NCBI GenBank assembly: GCA_019057795.1
Contig: JAHLWS010000080.1
Location: forward strand, 59,172-123,171
DNA length: 64,000 nucleotides
Direction: 5' to 3'
DNA from: Promethearchaeota archaeon
GTDB taxonomy: Archaea > Asgardarchaeota > Lokiarchaeia > Sigyniarchaeales > SOKP01
The position numbers and the translations under genes are program-made. Positions within the stretch are counted from its first letter, which is position 1. Each line of letters begins with the position of its first letter. Below, one piece after another: positions 46,241-64,000 of this stretch. The notes beneath the pieces were generated by a model. That model had not been told where the DNA came from and ran no database searches. It saw nothing but the letters and a program-made list of their open reading frames with translations.

Positions 46241-46726
46241 ATACCGGTTCAAAACTTCATGGAATTGTACAAGTTATTGCCTAAAACTAATTGTAAAGAA
46301 TGCGGGAAGCCTACTTGCATGGCTTTCAGTTTAGATTTATTGCAGGGTAAAGTTAAGGTGGACGATTGTCCTCCCATTTTGAAACCAAAATATAAAAAGC
46401 AATACGATAAATTAAAGGAAATGCTTGGTTCCGAAGAAGGGCAACAAAAAGAACTGAGAATAAATGTAGACGAAGACCTTTGCGATGGGTGTGGAATTTG
46501 TGTGACGGTATGTCCTGTAAATGCGAGATATTGTCCCCCTAGTTTAAGCGGTAAAGCTCCAGAATATCCCCCTGAGAAACATCAGCTCTTTCAAGTGATA
46601 GGTGGAAAGTGTGAATTATTAAACCTTGAACATTGTCGAAGGTTAGACTCGGAGGGCCGAGAAAGAGAATGCCGTGTATGTGAGACTTACTGTCCTCGCG
46701 AGGCGATTAAAATTGAATATGTATAA
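46241..46726 (+). CDS. FeS-domain plus ferredoxin protein (FwdG-like); start ATA 46241 or ATG 46259
   Basis: LPKTNCKECG..TCMAF FeS domain, CDGCGICVTVC and C.VC...CP ferredoxin motifs; first gene of the fwd-like operon. Confidence 0.75.
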   Translation: MPVQNFMELYKLLPKTNCKECGKPTCMAFSLDLLQGKVKVDDCPPILKPKYKKQYDKLKEMLGSEEGQQKELRINVDEDLCDGCGICVTVCPVNARYCPPSLSGKAPEYPPEKHQLFQVIGGKCELLNLEHCRRLDSEGRERECRVCETYCPREAIKIEYV

Positions 46727-46779
46727 CGTTTATTATGTATAACGATTTAAATTTATAAAAAATTATTGAGGATATAGTT

Positions 46780-48084
46780 ATGAAAAGATACCCTTGTTCT
46801 GGTTGCTCGTTATTGTGTGACGACATAATAGTTAAGAGCGATGGTCTATTTATTGATGAGGTTATTGGCGCTTGTTTAAAGGGAAAGGAAAGATTTGACC
46901 AAGTTAGCGCTCAGAATAGAATTTCAAGTCCGATGATTCGAAAAAACGATGAATTGATTAATGCGTCATGGGAAGAGGCGTTAGCAAAAACTGTCGAAAT
47001 CATAAGAAATTCTTCCGCTCCGTTGCTTTATGGATTTTCAAATGTAACCTGTGAGGCTCAAAGGGCTGGAATGGATTTAGCAAGAGAAATAAACGGATTT
47101 ATTGATTCAAACGCTTCAATTTGCCAAGGAAAAATTTTAAATAAAGCAAAATCACAAGGAATAAATTTAACAACGATTACGGAAATTATTAACAAAGGAG
47201 ATTTGATTATTCTATGGGGGGCAAATCCAGCGGAAACGATTCCTCGCCTTTTAAATAAAGTTCTTTTTTCCAGAGGGAAATTTCGCATGACTGGCAGAGA
47301 AATAAAGACTCTAGTAATTATAGATCCTGTAAAAACTGCCTCTTTTAGGGTGATGGGCGTCCGAGATCTATCATTAATTATTGAACCAGATAAAGATATT
47401 GAATTAATTCAGATGTTAAAAAAAGAATGTTGTAGTGCCGATAGCATCCCATCTGGGGGTGTTGCCGGAATAGATAAAAACGATCTTAAGCGTTTACTGC
47501 TCCACCTAACTGGCGCGGAAAATGGCGTAATTATTCTTGGACAGGGTGTAATACAACCTCATGCGAAATACGATATTATAGAGGAATTATTAGATTTGCT
47601 ACAATTGATAAATACAAGGCAAGTAAAAGGGCGAATATCGCTGCTTATTCTGGGAGGGCACTTTAATATGGCTGGATTCGATCATGTAGCGCTTTCCTCA
47701 TACGGAGTAAGCGGTAAATTACAATTTGAAAGTAAAAAATTGGTTGAGTCAGAAGACACAATCATTTCAAAAATTAATAAGGAAAATTTCGATTGTTCTA
47801 TTATCGTCGGAACCGATCCTATCTCACATTTACCACATTCTTTAAGCTCCAAATTAGCAAAAAAACCACTTATACTCATAGATAATCATAGTTCAGCAAC
47901 TTCACGCATAGCAGATGTAGTATTGCCGACAGCAATAACGGGAATTGAAAGTAGTGGACTAGTTTATCGTATAGATCAAGTACCAGTTGAATTAAAAAAA
48001 ATTCTAAATCCACCTAATAATATTCCTTCGGACGAAGAACTACTGAAACAATTGATTAAAAAATTAAATGGAGGTGTCAAATAA
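46780..48084 (+). CDS. fwdB: Formylmethanofuran dehydrogenase subunit B-like protein (divergent)
   Basis: CSGCSLLCDD, ACLKG, IDSNASICQG, WGANP, GHFNM, AITGIE. Confidence 0.8.
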   Translation: MKRYPCSGCSLLCDDIIVKSDGLFIDEVIGACLKGKERFDQVSAQNRISSPMIRKNDELINASWEEALAKTVEIIRNSSAPLLYGFSNVTCEAQRAGMDLAREINGFIDSNASICQGKILNKAKSQGINLTTITEIINKGDLIILWGANPAETIPRLLNKVLFSRGKFRMTGREIKTLVIIDPVKTASFRVMGVRDLSLIIEPDKDIELIQMLKKECCSADSIPSGGVAGIDKNDLKRLLLHLTGAENGVIILGQGVIQPHAKYDIIEELLDLLQLINTRQVKGRISLLILGGHFNMAGFDHVALSSYGVSGKLQFESKKLVESEDTIISKINKENFDCSIIVGTDPISHLPHSLSSKLAKKPLILIDNHSSATSRIADVVLPTAITGIESSGLVYRIDQVPVELKKILNPPNNIPSDEELLKQLIKKLNGGVK

Positions 48085-48085
48085 T

Positions 48086-48463
48086 ATGGATTTTCTATTA
48101 AATACTATAAGAAAAATCGACAACGACCAAGTAAAAGAACATAGTTTTGGAAACGAACAATCTTTAGAAGAAAACTTAGCGATATCATTCATTAATCCAA
48201 ATGATTTTGACAAACTCAATTTAGTTTCAAGCTTACATTTAAAAATAGCAAATAATCAAAGGAATATTGTAGTAAGATTTGAAAAAGACGATAACGTACC
48301 CGAAGGAACTATCACGATGCCCGTGTCAATATGGTCAAACCAATTAACAGAAATACTAAACGATAATATTGTTTATAAAAACATAGTAGTCAGCGTGGAA
48401 GCAACGCGCGAGTCAATACTTAAATTTAAAGAAATCATCCAAAAAATCAGAGGTATCGAATAA
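48086..48463 (+). CDS. fwdD: Formylmethanofuran dehydrogenase subunit D-like protein
   Basis: LNT.R, INP.D...L, VPEG.I.MP...W.N; SD GGAGGTG favours ATG 48086. Confidence 0.7.
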   Translation: MDFLLNTIRKIDNDQVKEHSFGNEQSLEENLAISFINPNDFDKLNLVSSLHLKIANNQRNIVVRFEKDDNVPEGTITMPVSIWSNQLTEILNDNIVYKNIVVSVEATRESILKFKEIIQKIRGIE

Positions 48464-48464
48464 G

Positions 48465-50129
48465 ATGGTTAAGCTCCTTGTAAAAAATGGTTTTGTTTTT
48501 GACCCCGTAAACAATATTGAAGGAGAAACAAAAGATATTTTAATTGAGAATGGAAAAATTGTGGAAAAATTTACGAATAAAAACGATCTTAAAGAAATCG
48601 ATGCTAAAGGAAAAACGGTTGTTCCATCGGCAGTGGATACTCACACTCACATAGCTTCCCAGCAGGTTAACTGGGCGCGTTTGTTGGGATCTGAAAATAA
48701 GGATTTTCAAGATATATGGAAAGGCTTAACTTTAGAGAATATTGCTAAAAGTTACATTTCGAACGGATATACCTTTATTCTCGAAGCTAATGTTTTCCCA
48801 TCCCTCTCAAAACAGACAATATTTGATCTAAAACGATTGCCTGTGCTAGATAAAGCATACTTGTTAAATATAAGTAATTTATGGACTTTAGAACTCGAGT
48901 TTCAGCGGGGAAAGGTTGAAAATGGTGCTGTTTTTTTGTCAGATCTCTTAAATAAAGTTAAAGGATTTGGCTTCAAAGCCTATAATCCCTTCGAAGCGGA
49001 ATATTGGAATTGGAAAAAGGTTAGAAACAGCCTAACCGAAAAAGGAAGGTTATTTAACTTTACTCCTATGGATGTTTACGAAAATCTCACTAAATTTGTA
49101 GAGTCTTTAGGTTTACCTCATTCAATTCACGCCCATATCGAAGGTTACGAATCTGTTCTTTCTAAAGAGAATTTAGTGTTAATTTTAAACAAGATCAAAT
49201 CGCTTGGCTTAAAACCTAACACAAACAACTCCCTTGAAATTAAACGGTCTCAAATATTTCACCTTGCACACGCTTCAGCTTATAATTCTGACGGAGATAA
49301 CTCAGAATTGATTAAATTTTTTAACGAGAACCACGATTTTGACATGGATTTAGGTTTTATTGGATTTGACAAATTGAATCCGTTAATTACATCTGACCGT
49401 CATTTGGTAAATAATCTAAAAAGTTCGGAAAACGCTTATAAACTAATTAGATCATCGGTAGAATCAGAGGGAGATTCATTTATAACTCTAAGAAAATTTA
49501 GAAAAAAAAAGGGAAGCGATTGTATTTTGTGGGCAAACGCTATTGATTTAGCGTTAAATATTACCCCGTGGCAAATGCAGTTCTCAGTCAACTACCCGAA
49601 CTATGCAAATATAACTAATGTTCCTGAAATCGCAACTTGGTTGTTGAGCAACAAAGCTCGCGAAAATTTTATGAACGATATGGATGCTGGTTTTTTAAAA
49701 GACAATTCTCTAACCAGTAATGACAAAATACTAACTTTTAACGATTTCGTAATTTTAACTCGTTCGAGCCCAGCTAAATCGTTAGGTATTGGAAGCATAA
49801 AAGGTAATTTAGGTTTAGGTGCTGATGGTGACCTGAATGTTTTGAATTTGAACTTAAACGATGTCGATGTTTTGAAAGATGTTGAAACTTTAAAGAAAGC
49901 GCTTAAAAACATAGAATTCGTGATAAAATCAGGAGAAATTATCAAAAACCAAGAGAAATTTAATCTAAGCGGTTCAGGAAAAATATTTTGGGCTTCGGGA
50001 AAAGCAGAAAAAGACGATTCTAAATTGGTTTTAACAAAGAAAAAAGAATTTTACCAAAAATACTATTCGATTTTTTACGATTCTTACGATATAACTATAG
50101 ATAACAACATTCTAAGAAAAATTGCTTAA
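48465..50129 (+). CDS. fwdA: Formylmethanofuran dehydrogenase subunit A-like amidohydrolase (divergent)
   Basis: KNG.VFDP.N.I.GE..DI, DTHTHIA, K.YNP, LPHSIHAH, TR..PAK.LG, G.LG.GAD.D. Confidence 0.85.
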   Translation: MVKLLVKNGFVFDPVNNIEGETKDILIENGKIVEKFTNKNDLKEIDAKGKTVVPSAVDTHTHIASQQVNWARLLGSENKDFQDIWKGLTLENIAKSYISNGYTFILEANVFPSLSKQTIFDLKRLPVLDKAYLLNISNLWTLELEFQRGKVENGAVFLSDLLNKVKGFGFKAYNPFEAEYWNWKKVRNSLTEKGRLFNFTPMDVYENLTKFVESLGLPHSIHAHIEGYESVLSKENLVLILNKIKSLGLKPNTNNSLEIKRSQIFHLAHASAYNSDGDNSELIKFFNENHDFDMDLGFIGFDKLNPLITSDRHLVNNLKSSENAYKLIRSSVESEGDSFITLRKFRKKKGSDCILWANAIDLALNITPWQMQFSVNYPNYANITNVPEIATWLLSNKARENFMNDMDAGFLKDNSLTSNDKILTFNDFVILTRSSPAKSLGIGSIKGNLGLGADGDLNVLNLNLNDVDVLKDVETLKKALKNIEFVIKSGEIIKNQEKFNLSGSGKIFWASGKAEKDDSKLVLTKKKEFYQKYYSIFYDSYDITIDNNILRKIA

Positions 50130-50296: not shown

Positions 50297-51604
50297 ATGA
50301 TTAATAAATCGTTATTATTTGAAATTCTAAGAGAACAGAATTATTGGTTTAAACAACCGATATTTGATTATATTGATAGAAAAACCTATTTAAAAGAAAT
50401 AAAAAAACATATCAATACTAAATCGATCTTAGTAATTCAGGGACCTAGAAGAGCAGGAAAGACTGTATTATTAAAATTACTTATTAGAAAAATGATGAAA
50501 TCTATTGACAAGAATAAAATTCTATATGTGAATCTTGAAGATTACAGGCTATTCCAATACTATTCCCTTGAGCTTATAGAGGCAATCTATGACACTTATA
50601 GAGAAAAAATAAACCCCGATAAGGAAGTTTATTATTTTATAGATGAAATTCAAAATATTGAGGGTTTTGAGCATTATCTGCGCTCACAATATGATAGCGA
50701 GAAAAAAATTAAATTCATTATTACAGGATCAAATTCAAAATTATTAAGTAAAGAATTAGCTACTTTACTTACAGGTCGTACATTAACATTTGAGGTTTTT
50801 CCCTTTTCCTTTAAAGAATACTTATTATATAAGAATATGGAAATTTCAGATAACAAATATTATTCGCTTGAACCTAATATCCATAAATTAAAACATTTAT
50901 TTAACGATTACTACACTCTTGGTTCAATTCCAGAATATATTAATAATCCTAAAAAAGAACGATTAGAAGAATATTTCGAAAATGTAATTCTTAAAGATAT
51001 TGTAGAACGATATAACATAAGAAATACTAAATTAATTAAAGACCTCGGGATTTATTTACTATCTAATGCTACAAACTTGATTTCAAACAGTTCATTAAGT
51101 AAAGTTTTTGATGTTTCAATTAATACAATTAAGGAATACATTTCATTTTTAGAATCAGCATATTTATTCTTTCATCTTAATAAGTTCTCCTATTCGTATA
51201 AAAAGCAACTTAAAACATCTTCAAAAATATATAGTATTGATAATGGGTTAATTAATCTCGTAAGTTTTAAATTCTCTGAGAACAAGGGTCGTCTTTTTGA
51301 AAATTTAGTATTTTTAGAATTAAAGCGAAACAATAAAGAAATTTATTATCACAGATTAAAAAAAGAATGTGATTTCATAATTAAGAAAAATCTAAAAATA
51401 ATTAACGCAATTCAAGTATCTATAAGTTTAGATCTTCCCAAAACCAAAAAAAGGGAGTTTGAGGGGTTAATAGAAGCATTAAACGAATATAATTTAAAAG
51501 AAGGTTTAATCATTACAGAAGACCAATACGAAGATTTAAAAATTGATGAATTTAAAATAAAAATAAGACCGTTATGGTTTTGGCTCTTAAATAAAAAAGA
51601 ATGA
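50297..51604 (+). CDS. AAA_14/DUF4143 ATP-binding protein
   Basis: GPRRAGKT, FIDEIQ, TGS, LTGR, K.Y.IDNG, G.LFEN, ECDF. Confidence 0.9.
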   Translation: MINKSLLFEILREQNYWFKQPIFDYIDRKTYLKEIKKHINTKSILVIQGPRRAGKTVLLKLLIRKMMKSIDKNKILYVNLEDYRLFQYYSLELIEAIYDTYREKINPDKEVYYFIDEIQNIEGFEHYLRSQYDSEKKIKFIITGSNSKLLSKELATLLTGRTLTFEVFPFSFKEYLLYKNMEISDNKYYSLEPNIHKLKHLFNDYYTLGSIPEYINNPKKERLEEYFENVILKDIVERYNIRNTKLIKDLGIYLLSNATNLISNSSLSKVFDVSINTIKEYISFLESAYLFFHLNKFSYSYKKQLKTSSKIYSIDNGLINLVSFKFSENKGRLFENLVFLELKRNNKEIYYHRLKKECDFIIKKNLKIINAIQVSISLDLPKTKKREFEGLIEALNEYNLKEGLIITEDQYEDLKIDEFKIKIRPLWFWLLNKKE

Positions 51605-51707: not shown

Positions 51708-52022
51708 ATGAAAATAAAAAAGATACTTAAAGAATTTAAAGAAAAACTTGTAGAACTATATCAAGAACAGTTAATAGACGTGCTATTATATGGTTCATAT
51801 GCGAGAGGGGATCAACGAGAAGATTCTGATATAGATATTGCTGTAATTCTGAAAGGTAAAATTGAGCCATTTAAAGAAATTGATAGGATTACCGAATTTT
51901 CGTACGATCTTAGTTTAAAATATTCAATTTTAATTTCTATTCATCCTATATCTGACATTGATTATTTTTCCAGAAATTATCCTTTTATCTTAAATTTAAG
52001 AGAGGAAGGCATCTCAATTTGA
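51708..52022 (+). CDS. Minimal nucleotidyltransferase (orphan MNT)
   Basis: LYGSYARGD...DSDIDI; C-terminal REEG. Confidence 0.88.
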   Translation: MKIKKILKEFKEKLVELYQEQLIDVLLYGSYARGDQREDSDIDIAVILKGKIEPFKEIDRITEFSYDLSLKYSILISIHPISDIDYFSRNYPFILNLREEGISI

Positions 52023-52034
52023 GTAATGAAGAAT

Positions 52035-53267
52035 TTAATAATTCAGTCCCTTAAGTCTATGAACCGTGGTAAATTGGTTTTTCCCGCTGTTTCTTAGATA
52101 ATTCATCGATTCTTCGATTCCTTCTATTGTCAAGTTAAACATAGGGATAAGGCTCGAAATAATCTTCCTCGTCCATGGTACCCACTCTAACCGAATTAAT
52201 TCAGGGTTTAACCAAACAACATTGTTCTTGAAGTGGTTGGCTATTTCTCTAATGTAATAAATTCCGGGCATCTCATTTCTATGGTAATAATAAATCGAAC
52301 CATATCTTTCCGTAAGTTCCCAAGAAGCCATAGCAGCGTCGCCAACGACAACTACTTTGTACTTATTATCGTATTTTTTCAAAAGATCGTCGAAATCTAT
52401 AGCCTCGTCAGAATTTCTCTGAGCATTTAAATAAAGTTGGTCATATACGCAATTATGGAAGTAGTAAAACTTAAAGTCTTTCCAATGTGACATGTTATTA
52501 GCAGCAGAAAAAAGTAAGTTGACAAGATGAGCGTAGGGGGTCATACTTCCTCCAACATCCATAAGAAGGATAAGTTTAACATTGTTTTTCCTTTTTTTCT
52601 CGAAAATAATTTCAATGTCCCCGCCATTTCTAGCAGTTTCATCAATTGTTTTATCAATGTTTAACTCGTCTTGCTTCCCTATCTCTTCCAGTTTTCTTAG
52701 ACGCTTCAATGCGACTTTAATTTGGCGTGTGTCTAAAACGATATCTTTTCTGTAATCGGCAAAGATTCTTTTTTGGGCGATTTGTATCGCCATACGCATA
52801 CCGGATGAGCCACCTACCCTCATACCCATCGGGTTTTGCCCCGAATGACCAAATTGAGAAAAACCTTGAGTTCCAATCCATTGATCTCCGAAATTATGCT
52901 CCTCATCCTGTTTTTTAAGTAATTCTTCGAAATGTTTTTGTAATTCTTCGATATCAAAATGTTGGTTAAGAAATTCTTGAAATCCGTCAGGTAATTCTGG
53001 AGGATTAAAATCTTTTTGAAGCCAATCCCATATTTCTTGTTTGATTTCTTCTGGGAACTTTAAAGAAGCGTTTTTGAAAAAGTTAGCAAACGCAATATCG
53101 TAAATGTCAAAGTGATGTTCGTTCTTACATAATATAGATCTTGAAATATAGTAGAACTCGACCATGTTATGGATAAGTCCCTTTTCAAGGGCTTCCATAA
53201 GGGTCATATACTCCGTAATACTAACCGGTAACCTTTCTTTTAGGTAATAAAAATACTCAACAAACAT
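52035..53267 (-). CDS. VWA-domain (CoxE-like) protein, MoxR partner
   Basis: LMDVGGSM MIDAS-like motif, YFHNC.Y, VGDA.M, WLNP. Confidence 0.88.
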   Translation of the reverse strand: MFVEYFYYLKERLPVSITEYMTLMEALEKGLIHNMVEFYYISRSILCKNEHHFDIYDIAFANFFKNASLKFPEEIKQEIWDWLQKDFNPPELPDGFQEFLNQHFDIEELQKHFEELLKKQDEEHNFGDQWIGTQGFSQFGHSGQNPMGMRVGGSSGMRMAIQIAQKRIFADYRKDIVLDTRQIKVALKRLRKLEEIGKQDELNIDKTIDETARNGGDIEIIFEKKRKNNVKLILLMDVGGSMTPYAHLVNLLFSAANNMSHWKDFKFYYFHNCVYDQLYLNAQRNSDEAIDFDDLLKKYDNKYKVVVVGDAAMASWELTERYGSIYYYHRNEMPGIYYIREIANHFKNNVVWLNPELIRLEWVPWTRKIISSLIPMFNLTIEGIEESMNYLRNSGKNQFTTVHRLKGLNY

Positions 53268-53302
53268 TTATTTAATCCTATAACCAAATAATTTAAAATT
53301 GA

Positions 53303-54157
53303 TCATGTAGGGAACTTAACTTTTTCTAAGGCTATTTCGAGATCTTTTTCTTTTTTAAGGAGCACTCCAAGGAATGGTATTCCATGCTTCAGTTCGTCTA
53401 AGCTTATTCCACTTTTCAATAAGACACCGATCCAATCCAGAAGTTCAGATGTCGAGGGCATTTTCCTTAGTTTTGTGATCGCTCTTAGCGCATAGAAATT
53501 TTTAAGGCACTGGTCTAAAAGGTTTTGTTTCAGATGTGGATAGTGAAGATTACAGATGTCTGCCATAAATTCTTTTGAAGGAAATTCTATCCAATGAAAC
53601 ACACATCTGCGTAAGAACGCGTCAGGAAGCTCTTTTTCATTATTTGAAGTAATAATAACTATAGGTCGAGTTTTAGCTTTAACAAATTCTTTGGTTTCTT
53701 TAACGTAAAATTCCATTACATCTAATTCTTGTAAAAGATCGTTTGGAAACTCGATATCTGCCTTATCGATCTCGTCGATAAGAAGAACGACTTGTTCCTC
53801 AGAGTCAAAAGCTTCCCCTAGCGGTCCATACATAATATAATCTTTAATATTGTTTACATTACGATCGTCGCTTCCAAATCGACTATCGTTTAATCTTTGG
53901 ACGGTATCGTACATGTAGCACCCATCGATTGCTTCCGTTGTGCTTTTTACATTCCATACGATTAATCGTTTTCCTAAAGATTCGGCAATAGCGTGAGATA
54001 ACAAAGTTTTTCCTGTACCGGGCTCACCCTTTACCAGTAATGGTCGAGCTAAGGCAATTGAAACGTTAACGATGTTTCTTAGTTGAGGATCAGCAATATA
54101 TTTGATCCTTTCAGTATTAACATCTCCTTTAAATTGATCAAATCCAGTATTACTCAT
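53303..54157 (-). CDS. MoxR-like AAA+ ATPase
   Basis: GEPGTGKT, LLIDEIDKAD..FPNDLL, TSN.EKELPDAFLRRC. Confidence 0.92.
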   Translation of the reverse strand: MSNTGFDQFKGDVNTERIKYIADPQLRNIVNVSIALARPLLVKGEPGTGKTLLSHAIAESLGKRLIVWNVKSTTEAIDGCYMYDTVQRLNDSRFGSDDRNVNNIKDYIMYGPLGEAFDSEEQVVLLIDEIDKADIEFPNDLLQELDVMEFYVKETKEFVKAKTRPIVIITSNNEKELPDAFLRRCVFHWIEFPSKEFMADICNLHYPHLKQNLLDQCLKNFYALRAITKLRKMPSTSELLDWIGVLLKSGISLDELKHGIPFLGVLLKKEKDLEIALEKVKFPT

Positions 54158-54337: not shown

Positions 54338-55672
54338 TTGAACAACCATAGCCTGAAGGCTATGGATTCGTAGGTTAGACTTTCAACACTACTGGATGGT
54401 TCAAGTATCCTCTATCCCCTATCCACTTGGATTTAGGGACTCCTTTTTGTAGAATGTTTCTTGAAGCGTTCACATCGGCGTTTAGAACAACCCCGCAATC
54501 TTTACAAATGTATAGTCCACGATACTTGCGATTTGACTTACGTACGACTCCACACGAAGAGCACGTTTGCGAAGTGTACTCTTCACCGGTTCTAATTACT
54601 TGAATTCCGACCATCTCAGATTTATATTCAATTTGTTGGACAAGTTTTAAAAACGGCGCGGAGACAAAGTTCTGGTTGTTTCTCTTCCCTATCGCGATCT
54701 TTTGCTTCCAACCTTCGTTATACCCGATGACAATCGTTCCAATATCGTTAGAAATGCAGTAATTGACTATTCTTCGAGATGTCTTATGAAAGAAATCTCT
54801 CATCTTGTTGTTTCGCTTTCGATGGAGCCTCAAGATGCGTCCTGTGACGTCCGTATCGTTGTATTTTTTCGCCATGGACTTGTATTTTGACAGTTGCTTG
54901 TTATAGAATTGATTGATCGACTTAACAACACCGCCTTTGATAATCAATGGCTTGTTTCCAACGTTATCTGACGCAGCTACGATGTTATTAAGTCCTAAAT
55001 CGATTCCCAAAGCGTTATTCTCGTTCAAGTGCAAGTCTTTTGGCTCGTAATCGTAGATTAATTCAATATTGTATCGATCTCCGAAAGGAACGATGCGAAC
55101 GCCTCTTACGCTTTTTAACGCGGTTTTTATTTTAGGAAAATCTAAGTTCTCCATCTTTTGCGTGAGTAGTACGTGCCCATTCTTTAGCCTACATTGTAAG
55201 GAAGTGAAATAGACTAAATTATGGCCGTTCTTACGCTTGTAACGAGGAAGCTTAGGTCTACCCTTAAATTTTAACCGTTCGCTTTTCCAAACCTTAATCG
55301 CTTTAAAGAAACTCTTGAAATTTCTATCTACTTGTTTTAATACTTGCTGTGGTGGATGAGAACCACACTTTTCCTGTAGTTTTTTATACGATTCGTGAGT
55401 TCTTAATAATTTCCATAACTCGTTATACCGAATCCAATGGCGATCCTTGAAAAACCTCTGTCGCACGGTATAGGTCGCTACATTGAACAAGTTCTTTGAA
55501 AGAAAAGTAATTTCGTCCAATAATTTTGAGCGTTTTAACTGAATTTGTTGAACGAGTTGCATTAATTATAACATTGAGTAATTCTTATTTAAAGAAATAG
55601 GGGTAGGATTATTAATTATTTACGCAAAATTCATCACATCCCTAAAGGAATGCGTTTTCTTTTGTTGAATTG
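54338..55672 (-). mobile_element. IS200/IS605-family non-autonomous element (tnpB only)
   Basis: Right end (minus strand): GAAT-CCATAGCC-TTCA-GGCTATGG-TTGT-TCAA. Left end: TTTTAT|CAATTCAACAAAAGAAAAC then hairpin GCATTCC-TTTA-GGGATGT. No tnpA. Confidence 0.8.
54375..55562 (-). CDS. tnpB: RNA-guided endonuclease TnpB
   Basis: GIDLG (RuvC-I), E.YTSQTCSSCG...C..CG zinc finger, NADVNA (RuvC-III). Confidence 0.95.
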   Translation of the reverse strand: MQLVQQIQLKRSKLLDEITFLSKNLFNVATYTVRQRFFKDRHWIRYNELWKLLRTHESYKKLQEKCGSHPPQQVLKQVDRNFKSFFKAIKVWKSERLKFKGRPKLPRYKRKNGHNLVYFTSLQCRLKNGHVLLTQKMENLDFPKIKTALKSVRGVRIVPFGDRYNIELIYDYEPKDLHLNENNALGIDLGLNNIVAASDNVGNKPLIIKGGVVKSINQFYNKQLSKYKSMAKKYNDTDVTGRILRLHRKRNNKMRDFFHKTSRRIVNYCISNDIGTIVIGYNEGWKQKIAIGKRNNQNFVSAPFLKLVQQIEYKSEMVGIQVIRTGEEYTSQTCSSCGVVRKSNRKYRGLYICKDCGVVLNADVNASRNILQKGVPKSKWIGDRGYLNHPVVLKV

Positions 55673-56883: not shown

Positions 56884-57987
56884 ATGCCAAGCATTACTTC
56901 TCTAATATCTCAAAGAATTAAACCCTCTTGCGCTGTATGGGAAATTACATTAAAATGTAATAGTAATTGCATTCATTGTGGATCAAAAGCAGGAAAAACT
57001 CGTCTTGATGAACTGAATACCGAAGAATCTTTAAAATTAGTGAGGGAAATCCGTGATTGTGGTTATAAAGGAGTTGCTTTAATGGGAGGAGAACCATTAA
57101 TTAGAGAAGATTGGTACGAAATTGCCAGAGAAATTAAAAAAAATAAGCTAGAATTATCAATTGTTACTAACGGATTAACTTTAATTGATAACATTCAAAA
57201 ATTAAAAAGCCTAAAAGTTGACTGCGTATCGCTAAGTTTAGATGGAGGGTCGGCTAAAGTTCACGATTATCTTAGAGGTATTCCAGGAGCATTTGAAAAA
57301 ACATTAAATGCGATTAACAGGTTAAAAGAAGAAAAATTACCAGTCAGTGTTATTACAGCAGTAAGTAAAACTAATTTAAATGAACTAGATAAGATAAAAA
57401 AAATCTTATTAGATCGAAATATTGCTTGGCAAATCCAGATAGCAATCCCTATTGGACGCTTTCCAAGAGAATTAACGATTTCGAGAGAGGAATTTTACAC
57501 TGTAGCATTATTCATTGCTATAAATGTTAAAAAGTATTCTTATAAAAGATTGCCAGTTATTGGTGCCCATTGTTTCGGCCATTTTTCAAGGTTTGTACCA
57601 AATTTAGGGTTGGATCCATGGGTGGGATGCCAAGCGGGAAAATCAGTTTTAGGCATTCAGAGTAATGGAAATATTAAAGGATGTTTAACGCTCCCAGATG
57701 GATTTATCGAAGGAAATATTAGAATGCAGAGTTTGAAAACGATTTTAGAAAAGATAAGGTTGAAACAAAAACAGTTAAAAGGTTATTGTGTTGATTGTGA
57801 TTTGGCAAAATTATGTCGGGGAGGATGTTTGGGAACAGCCATAGCATTAAAAGAATTTGATGAGCCTTATTGTCTAAGAGCAATCGAAAATAAATTATTT
57901 TCATCGAAACAATTACCAATTAAAGGGAAATTGGATTCAACAATTTCAATATTAAAAAATATGTATCATAACTTAATATTCAAATAA
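56884..57987 (+). CDS. Radical SAM/SPASM domain protein (putative peptide maturase)
   Basis: WEITLKCNSNCIHCGS, GGEPL; SPASM cysteines CQAG...GNIKGC and CVDCDLAKLCRGGC...YC. Confidence 0.92.
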   Translation: MPSITSLISQRIKPSCAVWEITLKCNSNCIHCGSKAGKTRLDELNTEESLKLVREIRDCGYKGVALMGGEPLIREDWYEIAREIKKNKLELSIVTNGLTLIDNIQKLKSLKVDCVSLSLDGGSAKVHDYLRGIPGAFEKTLNAINRLKEEKLPVSVITAVSKTNLNELDKIKKILLDRNIAWQIQIAIPIGRFPRELTISREEFYTVALFIAINVKKYSYKRLPVIGAHCFGHFSRFVPNLGLDPWVGCQAGKSVLGIQSNGNIKGCLTLPDGFIEGNIRMQSLKTILEKIRLKQKQLKGYCVDCDLAKLCRGGCLGTAIALKEFDEPYCLRAIENKLFSSKQLPIKGKLDSTISILKNMYHNLIFK

Positions 57988-58021
57988 TCTGATAATAAAA
58001 TTTAATGGAGGTATCTTAAAA

Positions 58022-58270
58022 TTGTTAGGAAATTTTTTTCAATTATATAAAATCGGTAAAGAGTTAGGATTAAATAAGAAAGAAATTAATAGAATCTTTT
58101 TATTTGATGATAGCAGAAATCCATTGTTTTTCAAAATCCTAATGATAATCATATTTATTTTTTTGGGAGTTTTCGTTATTATATTAGGAATTGAAGCCTC
58201 AAGACATATTTATCCTGCTGGAACATTATATTCTACTGTAAAAATAAAGGATTTTAAAGCTAAAAAATGA
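58022..58270 (+). CDS. 82-aa single-TM peptide, paralog 1 (putative RiPP precursor)
   Basis: QL.KIGKELGL.KKE.N leader, TM, C-terminal YPAGTLYSTVKIKDF; GGAGG SD. Confidence 0.8.
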   Translation: MLGNFFQLYKIGKELGLNKKEINRIFLFDDSRNPLFFKILMIIIFIFLGVFVIILGIEASRHIYPAGTLYSTVKIKDFKAKK

Positions 58271-58307
58271 AGATATAAAATTCAAATAAGGAGGGATTAT
58301 TTAGAAA

Positions 58308-58556
58308 ATGATGAAAGATATAATTCAGCTCTTTAAAATCGGTAAAGAGTTAGGATTAAATAAGAAAGAAATAAATAAAGTACTAATATTTGACAATAGT
58401 AAGGTTACTTTATTATACAAAAGCCTATTGATAATATCATTTATTTTTTTTGGTATCATAATAATAATATTAGGAATAGAAGCCTCTAGAAATACTTATG
58501 CAGCAGGGAGTTACTATTCTACTATTAGAATAAAAGATTTCAACGAAAGAAAGTAA
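58308..58556 (+). CDS. 82-aa single-TM peptide, paralog 2 (putative RiPP precursor)
   Basis: Same architecture; YAAGSYYSTIRIKDF; GGAGG SD. Confidence 0.8.
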   Translation: MMKDIIQLFKIGKELGLNKKEINKVLIFDNSKVTLLYKSLLIISFIFFGIIIIILGIEASRNTYAAGSYYSTIRIKDFNERK

Positions 58557-58654
58557 ATTCAACAATTTTTTCTTAAAGAAATCATGAAATTTTAATCTGA
58601 TGGTAAAAATGTAAAAATTAAATTAACTTCAAAATTTGAGTGATTATTGAGAAA

Positions 58655-58903
58655 ATGATGAAAGATTTGATTCAACTACATAAAATCGGGAAAGAACTAG
58701 GATTATCTAAAAAAGAAGTAAACAAAGTTTTATTCTATGATAATTCTAAGAATAGCGTCATATTACTGATTATTTTAATTATAATTTTCTCTATTGTGGG
58801 CTATTTTATTGGATTATTTATTGAATCGGTAATAAGCAACACTTATCCTAGCGGAACAAAATATTCAACTGTAAAAATAAAAGACTTTGATAAAAAAAAA
58901 TGA
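58655..58903 (+). CDS. 82-aa single-TM peptide, paralog 3 (putative RiPP precursor)
   Basis: Start moved to ATG 58655 (MMKD, as in paralog 2); YPSGTKYSTVKIKDF. Confidence 0.8.
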   Translation: MMKDLIQLHKIGKELGLSKKEVNKVLFYDNSKNSVILLIILIIIFSIVGYFIGLFIESVISNTYPSGTKYSTVKIKDFDKKK

Positions 58904-60243
58904 AGCTTAATATTGGTTGCGGAAAAAAATACGATCCTGATTATTGTAATATTGATTTGTATGAAGATTTAGTGGCTGATAGATTGATGTCAGCTTTTAA
59001 CCTTGAATTTGATGACAATACTTGCGATGAAATTAAAGCGATTCACATAATTGAACACTTAAGTTTTTTTGAAACTATTTATGCTCTTAGTGAATTTTTT
59101 AGAGTATTAGAACCTCATGGGAAATTAATCCTTGAAACTCCTGATCTTAAGAAAACTTGTCAGCATTATTTAAAAGCAAACGGAGAACAGAAAAAAGAAA
59201 TATTGGGATGGTTTTTTGGAATACCTCATAAAGGATTACAGCACAAGATTTGTTTTCCTCCTTACTTATTAAGAGAACTATTATCCAATGCGGGGTTTAA
59301 AAATATTTCCACAGTATTCTATTATAACAATGAATCTATTCCTTCTGTTAGATTTAAGTGCTATAAACTTGATGAGGGTTATTCTCTTAAAATTTTTCAA
59401 ATTATAACAAAAATCCGAAAGACGATGCTCGTTAAGAATTATATTGATTTTACAGATTCGTTTATTATAAAAGAGCAAGAGGATTTAATAGCAAAATTTG
59501 CGCTAGAATTATTAAAATTAGAGAAAAACGATAAAAAAGAAAAAATCTTTGAAATATTAACTGATATTTCAATAAAGTCGCCTAAATTCACTAAATTCTT
59601 TTTAGAAGCAATCGAAAATAAAGATCTTCTTTCCGAGAAAGAAATAAAATTTATTCTTAAGACAGCTGAATTATTAATTGATTTGAATTTTCCTAATATT
59701 TTATTAAATTCTTTGAAAAAAGGACCACTTAAACCAGGAACCCAAAAAATTATTTTTTCTTCAATTGAATCGTTTGCTAAAAGTATTATAACGAAATTAA
59801 ATCAATTCGAAAAAGATCGGGACAAAATCACAGAAAAATTAAAAGATTTATCTGAACCTATTAAGGAAATTGAAATCAACTTTTTTTCTTACAACTTAAT
59901 TGAACAAAAATCGTTGGACTATTACTACAAAGGGATAAAAGCTTTTTACATAAAAAATTACAAGACAGCTCATAATAAATTTTTAGAAGCTATACGATTA
60001 TATAGGGACGATTTATTTTATTATTGGAATCTAGCGAAAGTTTTAACTAAATTAGAATTAGAAGATCAAGCGATAAAATTCTATAAATTAACATTGAGAT
60101 TTTTAAGGTTAAAAAAGATTCAATATAAAGACGAGATTAAACTTGATATTAAAAAAGAATTACACTGGGTAAGAAGTAAGCAAGGACCAACCCCTAAATT
60201 TGAACCCATAATCTCAATTGAAAAATATCGCAAGATTAATTAA
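58900..60243 (+). CDS. Class I SAM-dependent methyltransferase with C-terminal TPR-like region
   Basis: LNIGCG motif I, H..EH, RVLEP.G.L.LE.PD; C-terminal 'YYKGI......YK.A...F.EAI...D...YY.NLA..L..L....AI.FY'; ATGA overlap with paralog 3. Confidence 0.85.
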   Translation: MKLNIGCGKKYDPDYCNIDLYEDLVADRLMSAFNLEFDDNTCDEIKAIHIIEHLSFFETIYALSEFFRVLEPHGKLILETPDLKKTCQHYLKANGEQKKEILGWFFGIPHKGLQHKICFPPYLLRELLSNAGFKNISTVFYYNNESIPSVRFKCYKLDEGYSLKIFQIITKIRKTMLVKNYIDFTDSFIIKEQEDLIAKFALELLKLEKNDKKEKIFEILTDISIKSPKFTKFFLEAIENKDLLSEKEIKFILKTAELLIDLNFPNILLNSLKKGPLKPGTQKIIFSSIESFAKSIITKLNQFEKDRDKITEKLKDLSEPIKEIEINFFSYNLIEQKSLDYYYKGIKAFYIKNYKTAHNKFLEAIRLYRDDLFYYWNLAKVLTKLELEDQAIKFYKLTLRFLRLKKIQYKDEIKLDIKKELHWVRSKQGPTPKFEPIISIEKYRKIN

Positions 60244-60393
60244 AGTCTAAAATTATTTTACAAAAAGTTTCCAAAGAAAGCAAATTTAAATTAAAAGATG
60301 AATGAGAATAAGAGAGTAGAATTATTCGTAGAAAACAATTTATTAATAATATAGAAATAGTTAAATTAAAGTTATTCGTTGTGTTTGTGAAAT

Positions 60394-61212
60394 TTAAAAT
60401 TCTTTTCTTTTAAGGGTTAAGAACGTTAATAACAAAAATAACAATGTATATAGTATCATAATTAAAATCCCCACTTCAATTGTTGGTGTAAGCCATCTTT
60501 TTACGGGAGGAAGGGTTTCGTCTGCGTAAGGCACCCAAACCCACCGTTCACCACCAAGCAACCCCCCTGGAATCATATGATTTATTAAATTTCCTACGTA
60601 AGATAAAGAAAAAATCGGTTCTATCTCTTGATTTATTGCGGTTAGTGTTTGCTCAAGAAGGGGAAATCCAATAAGAAATAATAAAATTACTATAATCGTT
60701 GTAAAATTTACTGTGGGCATTATGGAACTAAAAAATAATATTAAAACGCTTAGAGTAATTGCATATATTATAGCTATTCCAAGAGAAAGATACGATTCTG
60801 GGATTATAGTGTTATAAACAACCATTGAGGAGAAATTCATCGTTAAATAATAAATAATCACTAAAAGAATAATTATATTTAAATTAGCAACAAATTTTCC
60901 TAAGAATAATTTATATTTGTTAATTTTTGGAAACATGATATACCCCGTTTTCTTACTGAATTCTGAGCAAACAGTATCAGAGAAAAAGAAGCACGAAACG
61001 AATATAAGGAAAAATCTAAAATAGTCAATACCTTTTCGATAATAATTACCCTCATCAAAATGATAAGGATAAAAGAACGAAAATAAAAGGGCAAATAATA
61101 CAGTCGTAATATAAAAGAATAAAACCCTTTTCCATCGCAACCTAAATTCCAAAAAATAAGTTCTTAGGATTGGATTAAAAACTCCTTTATTATTTACTAT
61201 TTTTTTATTCAT
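60394..61212 (-). CDS. ABC-2 type transporter permease
   Basis: Six TM, 'D....EF.K.TG....P.I....LF.GK', C-terminal KRKE. Confidence 0.85.
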   Translation of the reverse strand: MNKKIVNNKGVFNPILRTYFLEFRLRWKRVLFFYITTVLFALLFSFFYPYHFDEGNYYRKGIDYFRFFLIFVSCFFFSDTVCSEFSKKTGYIMFPKINKYKLFLGKFVANLNIIILLVIIYYLTMNFSSMVVYNTIIPESYLSLGIAIIYAITLSVLILFFSSIMPTVNFTTIIVILLFLIGFPLLEQTLTAINQEIEPIFSLSYVGNLINHMIPGGLLGGERWVWVPYADETLPPVKRWLTPTIEVGILIMILYTLLFLLLTFLTLKRKEF

Positions 61213-61241
61213 TTCTTATTTGATCTCGTTTTTACTTTTTC

Positions 61242-62243
61242 TTATTTAATCTTTTCTAAGTATAATTTCTCTAAAAGAGATGTTTTCGATTGTGAAAACG
61301 ATATTATTGTAAAATCTGAAGCAAAATCTTTACCTAAAATTTTAAAAATTTCCCCTTTCGATTCTGGGTTCCCGTCATAAAATATAACAAGTTCCTTGAT
61401 TGAGGGTTGGTATTGAACGGGTGATTTAAATATTATAGGATCTAAATTTTTATCCAAATACAACGCTAATTTTTCATTAAGTTTATTTATTACAAATTCA
61501 AGCTTTTCTAGAGGAATTGGATTGAGAAGTTGACAAATGATTTCATTTGTTTTTAATAATTTCTCCATATTTTCGATTCGATCAAATTTAATAATTTCTC
61601 CGTTGTTGATAAACGCAATTTTATCGCAAACTTCTGATATCTCACGTAGCATATGCGATGCTATAAAGATCGTTTTATTTTGTTCTTTGAAGGTTTTTAA
61701 ATATTGTCTAATTTTTATTCTAGCTTTTGGATCTAATCCTGTTTGAGGTTCGTCTAAGAAAATAATCTCCGGATCGTGAAAAATGGCTTGAATAAATCCC
61801 AGTTTTTGCTTCATGCCCTTTGAAAAAGTTTTAATTCTTTTTTTTTTCCAATTAATTAAATTAAAATGAGAAAGTAATTCATCGATTCGTTGATTTATTT
61901 TTTCTTTAGGATAGTTGTGAAGTTTAGCGTAATGTTTTAATAAAACATTAGGATTTGAATCGTAGAATACGGGAATATCGATTAAAAAGCCCATTGAGAT
62001 TAGGTCTTGCGAATTTACGCTTATATCTTGTAGAATATTCCTATTATTTTTTATTGAGATATTACCGGTAGTGGGTCTTAATAGTTTTGCAATAAGTTTT
62101 ATAGTTGTTGTTTTGCCCGCCCCATTTGGACCGACAAACCCAATGGTTTCTCCTTTGTGAACTTCAAGATTTAAATTTTTTACTGCAAAATTTTTTCCAA
62201 ACTTTTTGCTTAGATTATTTGTCTTTAGTATTATCTCAGTCAA
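61242..62243 (-). CDS. ABC transporter ATP-binding protein
   Basis: GPNGAGKTT, FSKGMKQK, LDEP.TGLDP, ASH. Confidence 0.95.
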   Translation of the reverse strand: MTEIILKTNNLSKKFGKNFAVKNLNLEVHKGETIGFVGPNGAGKTTTIKLIAKLLRPTTGNISIKNNRNILQDISVNSQDLISMGFLIDIPVFYDSNPNVLLKHYAKLHNYPKEKINQRIDELLSHFNLINWKKKRIKTFSKGMKQKLGFIQAIFHDPEIIFLDEPQTGLDPKARIKIRQYLKTFKEQNKTIFIASHMLREISEVCDKIAFINNGEIIKFDRIENMEKLLKTNEIICQLLNPIPLEKLEFVINKLNEKLALYLDKNLDPIIFKSPVQYQPSIKELVIFYDGNPESKGEIFKILGKDFASDFTIISFSQSKTSLLEKLYLEKIK

Positions 62244-63722: not shown

Positions 63723-64000
63723 TTATAATTCTTTTCTTTTTAAGGCTAAGATCGTAAATAGAAAAAACAATGATGCATAAATTATCATCATCAAAATCCC
63801 AACCTCAATTGTTGGTGTACGCCAATGTTTTACAGGAGGAAGGGTTCCACTTGAGTAATGAATCCAAGACCACCGATCACCACCAAGCAACCCACCTGGA
63901 ATGATATGATTTATTAAATTTCCTACGTAAGATAAAGAAAAAATCGGTTCTATCTCTTGATTTATTGCGGTTAGTGTTTGCTCAAGAAGGGGAAATCCAA
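63723..64000 (-). CDS. ABC-2 permease paralog (3' end only)
   Basis: Nearly identical in part to 60394..61212; ends ...ALKRKEL*. Confidence 0.85.
   Translation of the reverse strand, partial: GFPLLEQTLTAINQEIEPIFSLSYVGNLINHIIPGGLLGGDRWSWIHYSSGTLPPVKHWRTPTIEVGILMMIIYASLFFLFTILALKRKEL

Follow-up and report, generated by a model that had tools for sequence, protein, structure and literature searches.

The window analysed here, a stretch of 64,000 nucleotides from a Promethearchaeota archaeon (assembly GCA_019057795.1, contig JAHLWS010000080.1), carries at positions 56884-60243 a cassette that is best explained, from its sequence and that of its relatives, as a five-gene maturation operon of a widespread archaeal family. 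The operon would encode an enzyme of the radical S-adenosylmethionine (SAM) class with a SPASM domain, three small precursor-like membrane proteins and a methyltransferase with tetratricopeptide repeats (TPR). From the gene order, co-occurrence, motifs, folds and family placement that we observed, we infer both the substrate and the chemistry: the small proteins are probably modified at their Tyr-containing tail by the radical SAM-methyltransferase pair. These comparisons also show the cassette to be a genuine conserved functional unit, predicted to be a splicease-related radical SAM/SPASM variant that modifies peptides. The window genome contains a single cassette locus.

A preliminary description, made from the letters of this DNA alone, had recognized a co-directional run of a radical SAM/SPASM gene (56884-57987, 367 aa), three 82-aa paralogues (58022-58270, with a TTG start; 58308-58556; 58655-58903) and a methyltransferase-TPR gene (58900-60243, 447 aa), all on the forward strand. 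Every one of these open reading frames (ORFs) is in its place, and so is the ATGA overlap, at 58900, between the stop of the third small ORF and the methyltransferase start. A Shine-Dalgarno sequence for each small ORF had also been proposed; the first two indeed have a GGAGG 10-13 nt upstream (10 nt for the first), but the third shows only a weak GAGTGA. This third ORF was listed from a GTG at 58640 (87 aa), and it is the 82-aa form from the ATG at 58655 that matches the other two in the alignment. The radical SAM gene, first in the operon, has no Shine-Dalgarno sequence and is preceded by an AT-rich, TATA-like sequence; its transcript may be leaderless at the start. The small ORFs are a tandem triplication of 260 nt, with nucleotide identities of 72% and 62%; this is the only long repeat, and neither flanking repeats nor a mobile-cassette scar were found around 56.7-60.4 kb. 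A search of 5.8 billion proteins retrieved 105 clusters of homologues of the 82-aa ORFs, nearly all of 80-94 aa, which indicates that the small ORFs are real genes and not chance frames. Within the operon, an oligo-T run (TTTTTTCTT, 58557-58580) follows the stop of the second small gene, and may act as an archaeal terminator or attenuator that increases the peptide-to-enzyme ratio.

The three components of the cassette occur together. We surveyed 400 genomes of the phylum, using a threshold of E ≤ 1e-60 for the radical SAM enzyme and a profile for the peptide. The enzyme was found in 107 genomes and in 57 of the 134 species of the GTDB family of the window, and the peptide profile retrieved 57 species of that family, in essentially the same genomes. 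Of the mismatches that were traced, the radical SAM gene is cut by the contig end in G242, G245 and G253, whereas the peptide-only cases correspond to G244 and to weak matches in G254 and G154. Wherever coordinates were compared, the peptides adjoin the radical SAM gene (e.g. G252:C167 and G241:C40) and, in all the contigs examined, one to three copies of the small ORFs lie between or beside this gene and a gene for a methyltransferase-like protein of 430-450 aa. The named peptide homologues come from Promethearchaeota/Lokiarchaeota and from metagenome-assembled genomes (MAGs) labelled as Hermodarchaeota. Peptide homologues occur with the enzyme and not mostly apart from it, so that this condition, set in the preliminary description, does not speak against the system. 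Likewise, the methyltransferase adjoins the radical SAM gene in the 11 Asgard families, out of 11, that have the latter. The cassette is accessory, being found in 23 of the 41 species of the genus of the window, and none of its three gene types is present in G249, G260 and G267, which are estimated to be 100% complete.

A wider scan, comparing the methyltransferase alignment with one genome per species from all prokaryotes, yielded 80 named loci. About 41 of them are Loki-type, and others belong to Thor, Heimdall, Atabeyarchaeia and MAGs labelled as Hod, Hermod or Odin. Outside the Asgard archaea, we found loci in Thermoplasmatales/Thermoplasmata (24-38% identity) and, further, in Methanobacteriota, an SM23-78 euryarchaeote, Nanohalarchaeota, Undinarchaeota and one Chloroflexia MAG. 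The system cannot, then, be considered specific to Asgard archaea, with Thermoplasmata, DPANN-type archaea and a Chloroflexia MAG also having the cassette. In 71 of the 80 loci, the flanks of the methyltransferase contain a radical SAM gene that belongs to the same clade and has the same orientation, and five of the other nine loci are at or near a contig end. Additionally, two natural methyltransferase-radical SAM fusions, P0362 (728 aa) and P0373 (834 aa), are among the nearest relatives of the enzyme. Together, co-occurrence, adjacency and natural fusions bear out that the enzyme, the small paralogues and the methyltransferase-TPR work as one unit, and suggest that the last is an obligate partner of the first.

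Both fusions are encoded on metagenomic contigs (P0362 in L037:5001-7187 and P0373 in L039:3003-5507). The first of these contigs also contains a second, stand-alone radical SAM gene and genes for three soluble precursors of 107-176 aa, ending in YPAGTRYAVF, YTPGTKYAVF and YTPGTLYAVF, with pentapeptide-repeat and sulfate-transporter genes as neighbours. In the Thermoplasmatales loci L080-L085, two tandem radical SAM paralogues are followed by the methyltransferase, and the precursors are soluble and of 57-67 aa.

The three small proteins of the window show pairwise identities of 49-60% and are composed of three parts: a Lys-rich N-terminal segment with the conserved string KIGKELGL..KKEIN, a single strongly hydrophobic segment (residues 35/39-57; values of 3.0-3.4 in a 19-residue Kyte-Doolittle window) and a 25-residue tail. 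In protein 1, the N-terminal helix is KIGKELGLNKKEIN, followed by one transmembrane (TM) segment and the tail YPAGTLYSTVKIKDF; the tails of proteins 2 and 3 are YAAGSYYSTIRIKDF and YPSGTKYSTVKIKDF, respectively. The tails have the form Y64-P/A-x-G-x-x-Y70-S-T-V/I-K/R-I-K-D-F, in which Y64, G67, Y70 and S71 are invariant within the 82-aa family, and conservation in this family is lowest in the TM segment (0.59, versus 0.83 for the core). The Tyr-Ser site is present in all three peptides of the window and in 84 of 86 Loki-type peptides. No Pfam or NCBIfam model matched the small proteins, even at E = 1 to 10. A 413-aa neighbour in L023 has a string similar to IGRKIGIDNKEL in common with the peptide leader but, as its sequence resembles the N-terminus of a glutamate dehydrogenase, the match was judged to be due to chance.

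Other lineages have precursors of very different build. Those of Thermoplasmatales end in ..YPGGRYGTFSIKDIN or ..YYGTISIKDF, and one Asgard lineage (L028) has tiny soluble peptides, of 46-65 aa, with the form ..GYPF..(about 30 aa)..YGVYK. Precursors with one TM segment have 82-150 aa or slightly more, as in the Thor type, of 110-154 aa and ending in Y-x-P-G-T-x-Y-G/A-x-I-x-P-K/R-D-F. Heimdall-type and other lineages, including a complete genome of 4.3 Mb, have proteins of 137-175 aa with about three hydrophobic segments, showing SYPY after the first of these and YGVY or YGVF near the end; the single-contig genome G143 is one with the 3-TM form. Common to all the forms are an N-terminal helix, E-K-I/L-x-x-I/V-G-x-x-L-G-I/L/V-x-x-x-E-I/V, a Tyr-Pro motif and a Y-[G/S/A]-hydrophobic motif, with Tyr-Gly present in the Thor, Atabey and Thermoplasmata relatives. 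The leader-TM-core layout put forward in the preliminary description does exist in the window, but precursor architectures number at least four, and the TM segment is thus not essential to the modification. The number of precursor copies per locus varies from 0 to 4, in tandem. In many close relatives, a fourth paralogue of the peptide, with a called length of 89 aa, lies directly downstream of the methyltransferase gene (e.g. G252:C167:5951-6199, G241:C40:3792-4043 and L001:9603-9872) and is followed by a gene for a 202-aa protein without family; the window has neither of the two.

Motif-only conservation on unrelated scaffolds and the variable copy number indicate that the small proteins resemble substrates and not structural partners, as had been proposed and as is also consistent with the weak co-folding result described below. 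The alternative would be that they serve as membrane anchors, or as regulatory subunits, in a radical SAM-methyltransferase complex that acts on a lipid, a cofactor or another protein. This would agree with the conservation of the 82-aa proteins over their full length, including both ends, with the lack of a leader protease, and with the frequent location of the cassette beside redox operons, from one of which, resembling fwd, it is divergent in L008 and L010. Nevertheless, soluble versions of 46-67 aa with the same motifs exist in Thermoplasmatales and in one Asgard lineage and, since fully soluble versions retain these motifs, a general anchoring role is excluded. Variable tandem copies with conservation limited to motifs are typical of substrates, and the co-folding pass, although weak, was specific with respect to the controls, so that we regard an anchoring or regulatory role as improbable.

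The radical SAM enzyme matches the Pfam families Radical_SAM (97 bits, E 1.5e-27) and SPASM (22.8 bits, with a cut-off of 21.5). The three Cys of its cluster motif CNSNCIHC (C25/C29/C32, CX3CX2C) and seven SPASM Cys (C249, C267, C302, C305, C311, C315 and C330) are invariant in 31 sequences, and the sequence evidence as a whole places the enzyme in the radical SAM/SPASM superfamily, in the neighbourhood of the splicease and GDL groups. Among NCBIfam models, the best match was TIGR04103 (nif11-class maturase 3, the PlpX splicease family), with 202.1 bits and a cut-off of 725, followed by TIGR03913 (GDL-motif peptide maturase; 175.7 bits, cut-off 591.75) and by TIGR04545 (AhbD; 158 bits, cut-off 500); TIGR04133 was fifth, with 155 bits and far below its cut-off, TIGR03962 (MftC) gave 120 bits, and WgkB, StsB and DynA gave 75-119 bits. 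The resemblance to TIGR03913/TIGR04133-type enzymes, noted in the preliminary description, is therefore partly right: TIGR03913 comes second, but the best family is TIGR04103 and TIGR04133 is only the fifth.

For a broader placement, 1.84 billion representatives were searched exhaustively with HMMER, which retrieved 407 clusters at E ≤ 1e-30; the best 150 of these were included in a tree with the Asgard sequences, and 20 representatives were scanned with NCBIfam. In the tree, the two fusion proteins fall together with those archaeal enzymes that are linked to a methyltransferase. Most of the 20 representatives had TIGR04103 or TIGR03913 as their best family, the rest having none above the set threshold; for the two-domain protein P0432 the best match was TIGR04334, in its second domain, whereas P0452, the nearest bacterial-type representative, came closest of the 20 to a cut-off, with 473 of 592 bits on TIGR03913. 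A heme-pathway (Ahb/NirJ) model was the best match for none of the 20, and none reaches a family cut-off. These data bear on the possibility of an AhbD/NirJ-type cofactor-biosynthesis enzyme with merely coincidental neighbours, for which the third place of TIGR04545 would speak; yet its score is below the cut-off and below both peptide-maturase families, the enzyme does not cluster with AhbD/NirJ enzymes, and it is strictly linked to the peptides and to the methyltransferase. Linkage, fusions and the scan of sequence-space neighbours effectively refute this identity, and we consider it extremely improbable.

The AlphaFold model of the enzyme (pLDDT 84) has as its nearest folds the RiPP maturases SkfB (Z 27.1), SuiB (Z 26.7) and CteB (Z 23.8), with 18-23% identity over 278-305 residues, and aligns with PqqE with Z 23.8. 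The alignments of SuiB and CteB begin at their residues 88-101, after the N-terminal domain of about 90-100 residues known as the RiPP recognition element (RRE; RiPP, a peptide made by the ribosome and modified after its translation), and we deduce that the archaeal enzyme lacks this domain. It also differs from SkfB, SuiB and CteB in that their thioether and Lys-Trp chemistries need residues that are not in the window tail. Loki-type enzymes carry a C-terminal extension of about 30 residues (337-367; 57892-57987) that is not found in other clades and that co-occurs with the 82-aa, single-TM precursors; its residues 353-366 are modelled as a low-confidence helix, which, speculatively, might serve for membrane association.

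A rival reading, which takes up the mechanism of the preliminary description, is that the enzyme makes a C-C or C-O cross-link with Tyr64 and/or Tyr70, the methyltransferase then O- or N-methylating the product, which would be displayed or released. Many SPASM RiPP maturases do cross-link, the nearest solved folds being among them, and the peptides of the window have two invariant aromatic residues six positions apart. In the relatives examined, however, one Tyr motif is about 30 residues from the other in the tiny soluble forms, and elsewhere about 80 to more than 100 residues away, with two hydrophobic segments on the way. This spacing, with TM segments in between, favours two separate Tyr sites over a single cross-link, and the presence of two radical SAM paralogues per cassette in Thermoplasmatales and in L037 fits two independent sites. 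Moreover, the sequence neighbourhood of the enzyme is that of spliceases and GDL maturases, with much lower scores for WgkB, StsB and DynA, and no protease or exporter for release is conserved. We thus find cross-linking doubtful in general, and a Tyr64-Tyr70 link unlikely as the conserved reaction.

The 447-aa partner was modelled with a pLDDT of 92. Its residues 1-159 adopt a class I SAM-methyltransferase fold (3sm3, Z 14.2 over 149 aa at 3.0 Å, in VIA-align), the middle is a helical linker domain, and three TPR-like repeats occupy residues 331-431 (designed TPR 1na3, Z 13.5, 1.7 Å over 85 aa, in VIA-align), a match that is to be taken at the level of fold only, as helical repeats often score Z of about 13. 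The Pfam match to Methyltransf_11 is weak (22.4, cut-off 21.2), and TPR_2 matches appear in homologues, faint where their strength is stated. G6, G8, D19, D27, E52, H53 and R68, which include motif I and the acidic residues for SAM binding, are invariant across 29 diverse homologues, and we predict that residues 1-159 are a class I SAM-dependent methyltransferase domain. A Foldseek comparison of the whole model with the PDB retrieved only generic methyltransferases, the TPR part surfacing with VIA-align alone, and an ESM Atlas comparison of the C-terminal part gave nothing beyond generic TPR clusters, at 0.93 and with few features in common. The label of methyltransferase-TPR thus stands, on the weak Pfam match and on the two folds of the model. 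Extended peptide tails are common ligands of TPR domains, which makes these repeats a candidate for the missing recognition element.

Combining these data, we propose that the three 82-aa proteins would be substrates that dock on the enzyme pair through their N-terminal amphipathic helix. Given that the radical SAM enzyme has no RRE, it would either recognize the precursor directly, in the way binary spliceases do with their leader helix, or depend for this on the methyltransferase and its TPR repeats. The enzyme would then abstract a hydrogen at the invariant Tyr70-Ser71 of the tail and the methyltransferase would add a methyl group on the same tail, with the product probably remaining anchored to the membrane by its single TM helix. 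Splicease-type splicing at Tyr70 is a tentative choice for the radical step, which might well prove wrong, and some other radical reaction directed at Tyr is almost equally likely. Co-folding of the enzyme with peptide 2 gave ipSAE values of 0.49, 0.35 and 0.24 (median 0.35), versus 0.01 for the best control; this is a weak pass, and most passes of this level are wrong except where the pair was already likely. Agreement among the three runs was at least 0% of contacts, with a partner pLDDT of at least 65 and no contacts returned.

Splicing is suggested by comparison with the spliceotide systems of the tyramine spliceases, both type I (PlpX/PcpX with PlpY, TIGR04103) and type II (RhaX/RhaA, RcsX, RasX), which also rely on radical SAM/SPASM enzymes with substrates encoded in the vicinity. 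The sites on which spliceases act have the form X-Y-G, for instance ..MYGVVF.. (PMC11414181, PMC10533398), and the natural cores of PlpA are ..M/L-Y-G-L-P-I and ..M-Y-G-V-V-F (PMC10533398). As in these MYGVVF and LYGLPI cores, an invariant Tyr followed by a small and a hydrophobic residue characterizes the archaeal YGVY, YAVF and YSTV sites. In binary spliceases, an alpha-helix of the precursor leader activates the enzyme (PMC11414181; PMC11626197; PMC10849128), and the N-terminal helix of the archaeal precursors could serve as an activator in the same way, as in RhaA (PMC11414181); like the archaeal enzyme, type II spliceases have no RRE domain. On the other hand, the archaeal enzyme, with 202 of 725 bits, is not the same equivalog, the lineage of the window has a Tyr-Ser site, its precursors are membrane proteins and not of the Nif11/NHLP type, and the hosts are archaea.

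Several observations weigh against modification of the Tyr tail by a splicease-like pair. The site of the window and of Loki-type peptides is Tyr-Ser, whereas the characterised spliceases use Tyr-Gly, and Asn or Asp follows the Tyr in some of the DPANN and euryarchaeal relatives. The radical SAM enzyme reaches no curated family cut-off, those of TIGR04103, TIGR03913 and AhbD included, and as such it falls in no curated equivalog from which a function could be transferred. No methyltransferase partner is named for the spliceotide pathways in the spliceotide literature cited here, and we know of none in the pathways described. The co-folding pass, apart from weak, came without contacts that would place Tyr70 relative to the active site. 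Finally, both tails of the peptides have a net positive charge, which makes the membrane topology ambiguous; were the C-terminal tail outward, the cytoplasmic Fe-S enzyme would have to act before insertion. Because of the remote model scores, the Tyr-Ser, Tyr-Asn and Tyr-Asp sites, the lack of a known methyltransferase partner and the weak co-folding, we put splicing forward as a hypothesis.

The GDL-motif maturases of TIGR03913, the second-best family of the enzyme (176 bits) and the one approached by P0452, offer a further comparison. GDL-family peptides have a conserved Tyr and, about 10 residues later, G-D-L, a spacing that resembles the Y-x11-K-D-F of the window peptides. Unlike them, the archaeal enzyme is below the family cut-off and the window peptides match no NCBIfam model at E = 10; no reaction is known for the GDL family itself.

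Also related in principle are mycofactocin (MftC/MftA) and pyrroloquinoline quinone (PQQ; PqqE/PqqA), in whose biosynthesis a SPASM enzyme attacks a Tyr of a small ribosomal peptide. A peptide-derived cofactor pathway of this type, in which the Tyr tail would become a small redox molecule, could account for the 120 bits on TIGR03962 and for the conserved, not hypervariable, core; relatives also have a G-V-Y string, which recalls what we take to be the C-terminus of MftA. However, MftC and PqqE need RRE partners (PqqD, MftB) and peptidases or oxidases, and no peptidase, PqqB/C-like or MftD/E-like gene accompanies the cassette; the mycofactocin and PQQ systems have a Tyr that is C-terminal or paired with Glu and products that are soluble cofactors, whereas here the Tyr is not C-terminal. 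Membrane anchoring and several paralogues per locus fit badly with such a pathway, as does its patchy presence within the genus and its absence from 100%-complete genomes, and we judge it highly improbable.

The transporter that the preliminary description included as an exporter does converge on the operon, being encoded on the reverse strand by a multi-TM permease (60394-61212, 272 aa, without Pfam or NCBIfam family) and an ATPase (61242-62243) of the ATP-binding cassette (ABC) type with DrrA/GldA-type NCBIfam matches, on which the label of ABC-2 depends. Nevertheless, when neighbours within 4-kb flanks were counted in the 80 related loci, homologues of the ATPase appeared in two and of the permease in one, and we rejected the transporter as part of the system. 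The upstream gene of the metallo-beta-lactamase fold appeared in four loci, and no peptidase is conserved with the cassette in related loci. Of the generic traits of RiPP clusters, precursor-like genes and tailoring enzymes are present; there is no conserved protease and the exporter occurs in only 1-2 of 80 loci. Since neither a protease nor an exporter is conserved, the product probably stays full-length and membrane-anchored. A second ABC paralogue lies further on, as an ORF fragment (63723-63998, reverse strand) that matches the final 91 residues of the permease with 79% identity.

Upstream, a TnpB-like gene (54375-55562, reverse strand; Pfam OrfB_IS605 and a Cas12f1-like TNB domain) is found 1.3 kb from the cassette; it is not present in the syntenic relatives L002-L004, which have an MscL gene at that position. 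A formylmethanofuran-dehydrogenase-like (fwd-like) operon occupies 46259-50129 on the forward strand (Fe-S protein, Molybdopterin, Molydop_binding and Amidohydro_3), and is followed by genes for a MoxR-type AAA protein and a CoxE-VWA protein (52035-54157). Between them lie an AAA_14/DUF4143 ATPase gene (50297-51604) and a small nucleotidyltransferase gene (NTP_transf_2, 51708-52022), both with the look of mobile or defence genes. In two more distant Loki-type loci, L008 (1-5640) and L010 (700-4332), the cassette is divergent from the same kind of fwd-like operon, and MoxR homologues occur at 4 kb or less from the cassette in 9 of the 41 Loki-type loci. This proximity may reflect synteny or a functional link.

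Our literature searches found no publication on the cassette, although a previous bioinformatic listing in a 2022 spliceotide survey is possible. What is new here is the obligate methyltransferase-TPR partner and a new precursor family within the splicease-related radical SAM/SPASM enzymes. We hold it to be possible, rather than probable, that such an enzyme and its obligate partner rewrite a Tyr in the tails of small membrane proteins of archaea, among them the Asgard archaea related to eukaryotes. If so, these would bear a gene-encoded, membrane-anchored alpha-ketoamide or another new Tyr-derived group, the Tyr-Ser sites of Loki-type proteins would extend splicease chemistry beyond Gly, and the system would represent a protein modification of a new class, with a function in the cell rather than as an antibiotic for secretion. 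Natural soluble precursors of 46-67 aa, with examples at L083:1280-1465 and L028:4521-4718 (reverse strand), make this chemistry directly testable in E. coli. If true, the reading would also provide new recognition tags for protein engineering, including Tyr-Ser and Tyr-Ala sites.

If the pair edits the Tyr tail, an undescribed post-translational modification would exist across several archaeal lineages, and backbone splicing, or a related radical chemistry, would extend from bacterial peptides to archaeal membrane proteins. From the patchy, accessory distribution, and from a product that is probably anchored at the surface, we speculate that it might participate in cell-cell or cell-virus interactions, in hosts whose surface biology is of relevance to models of eukaryogenesis.

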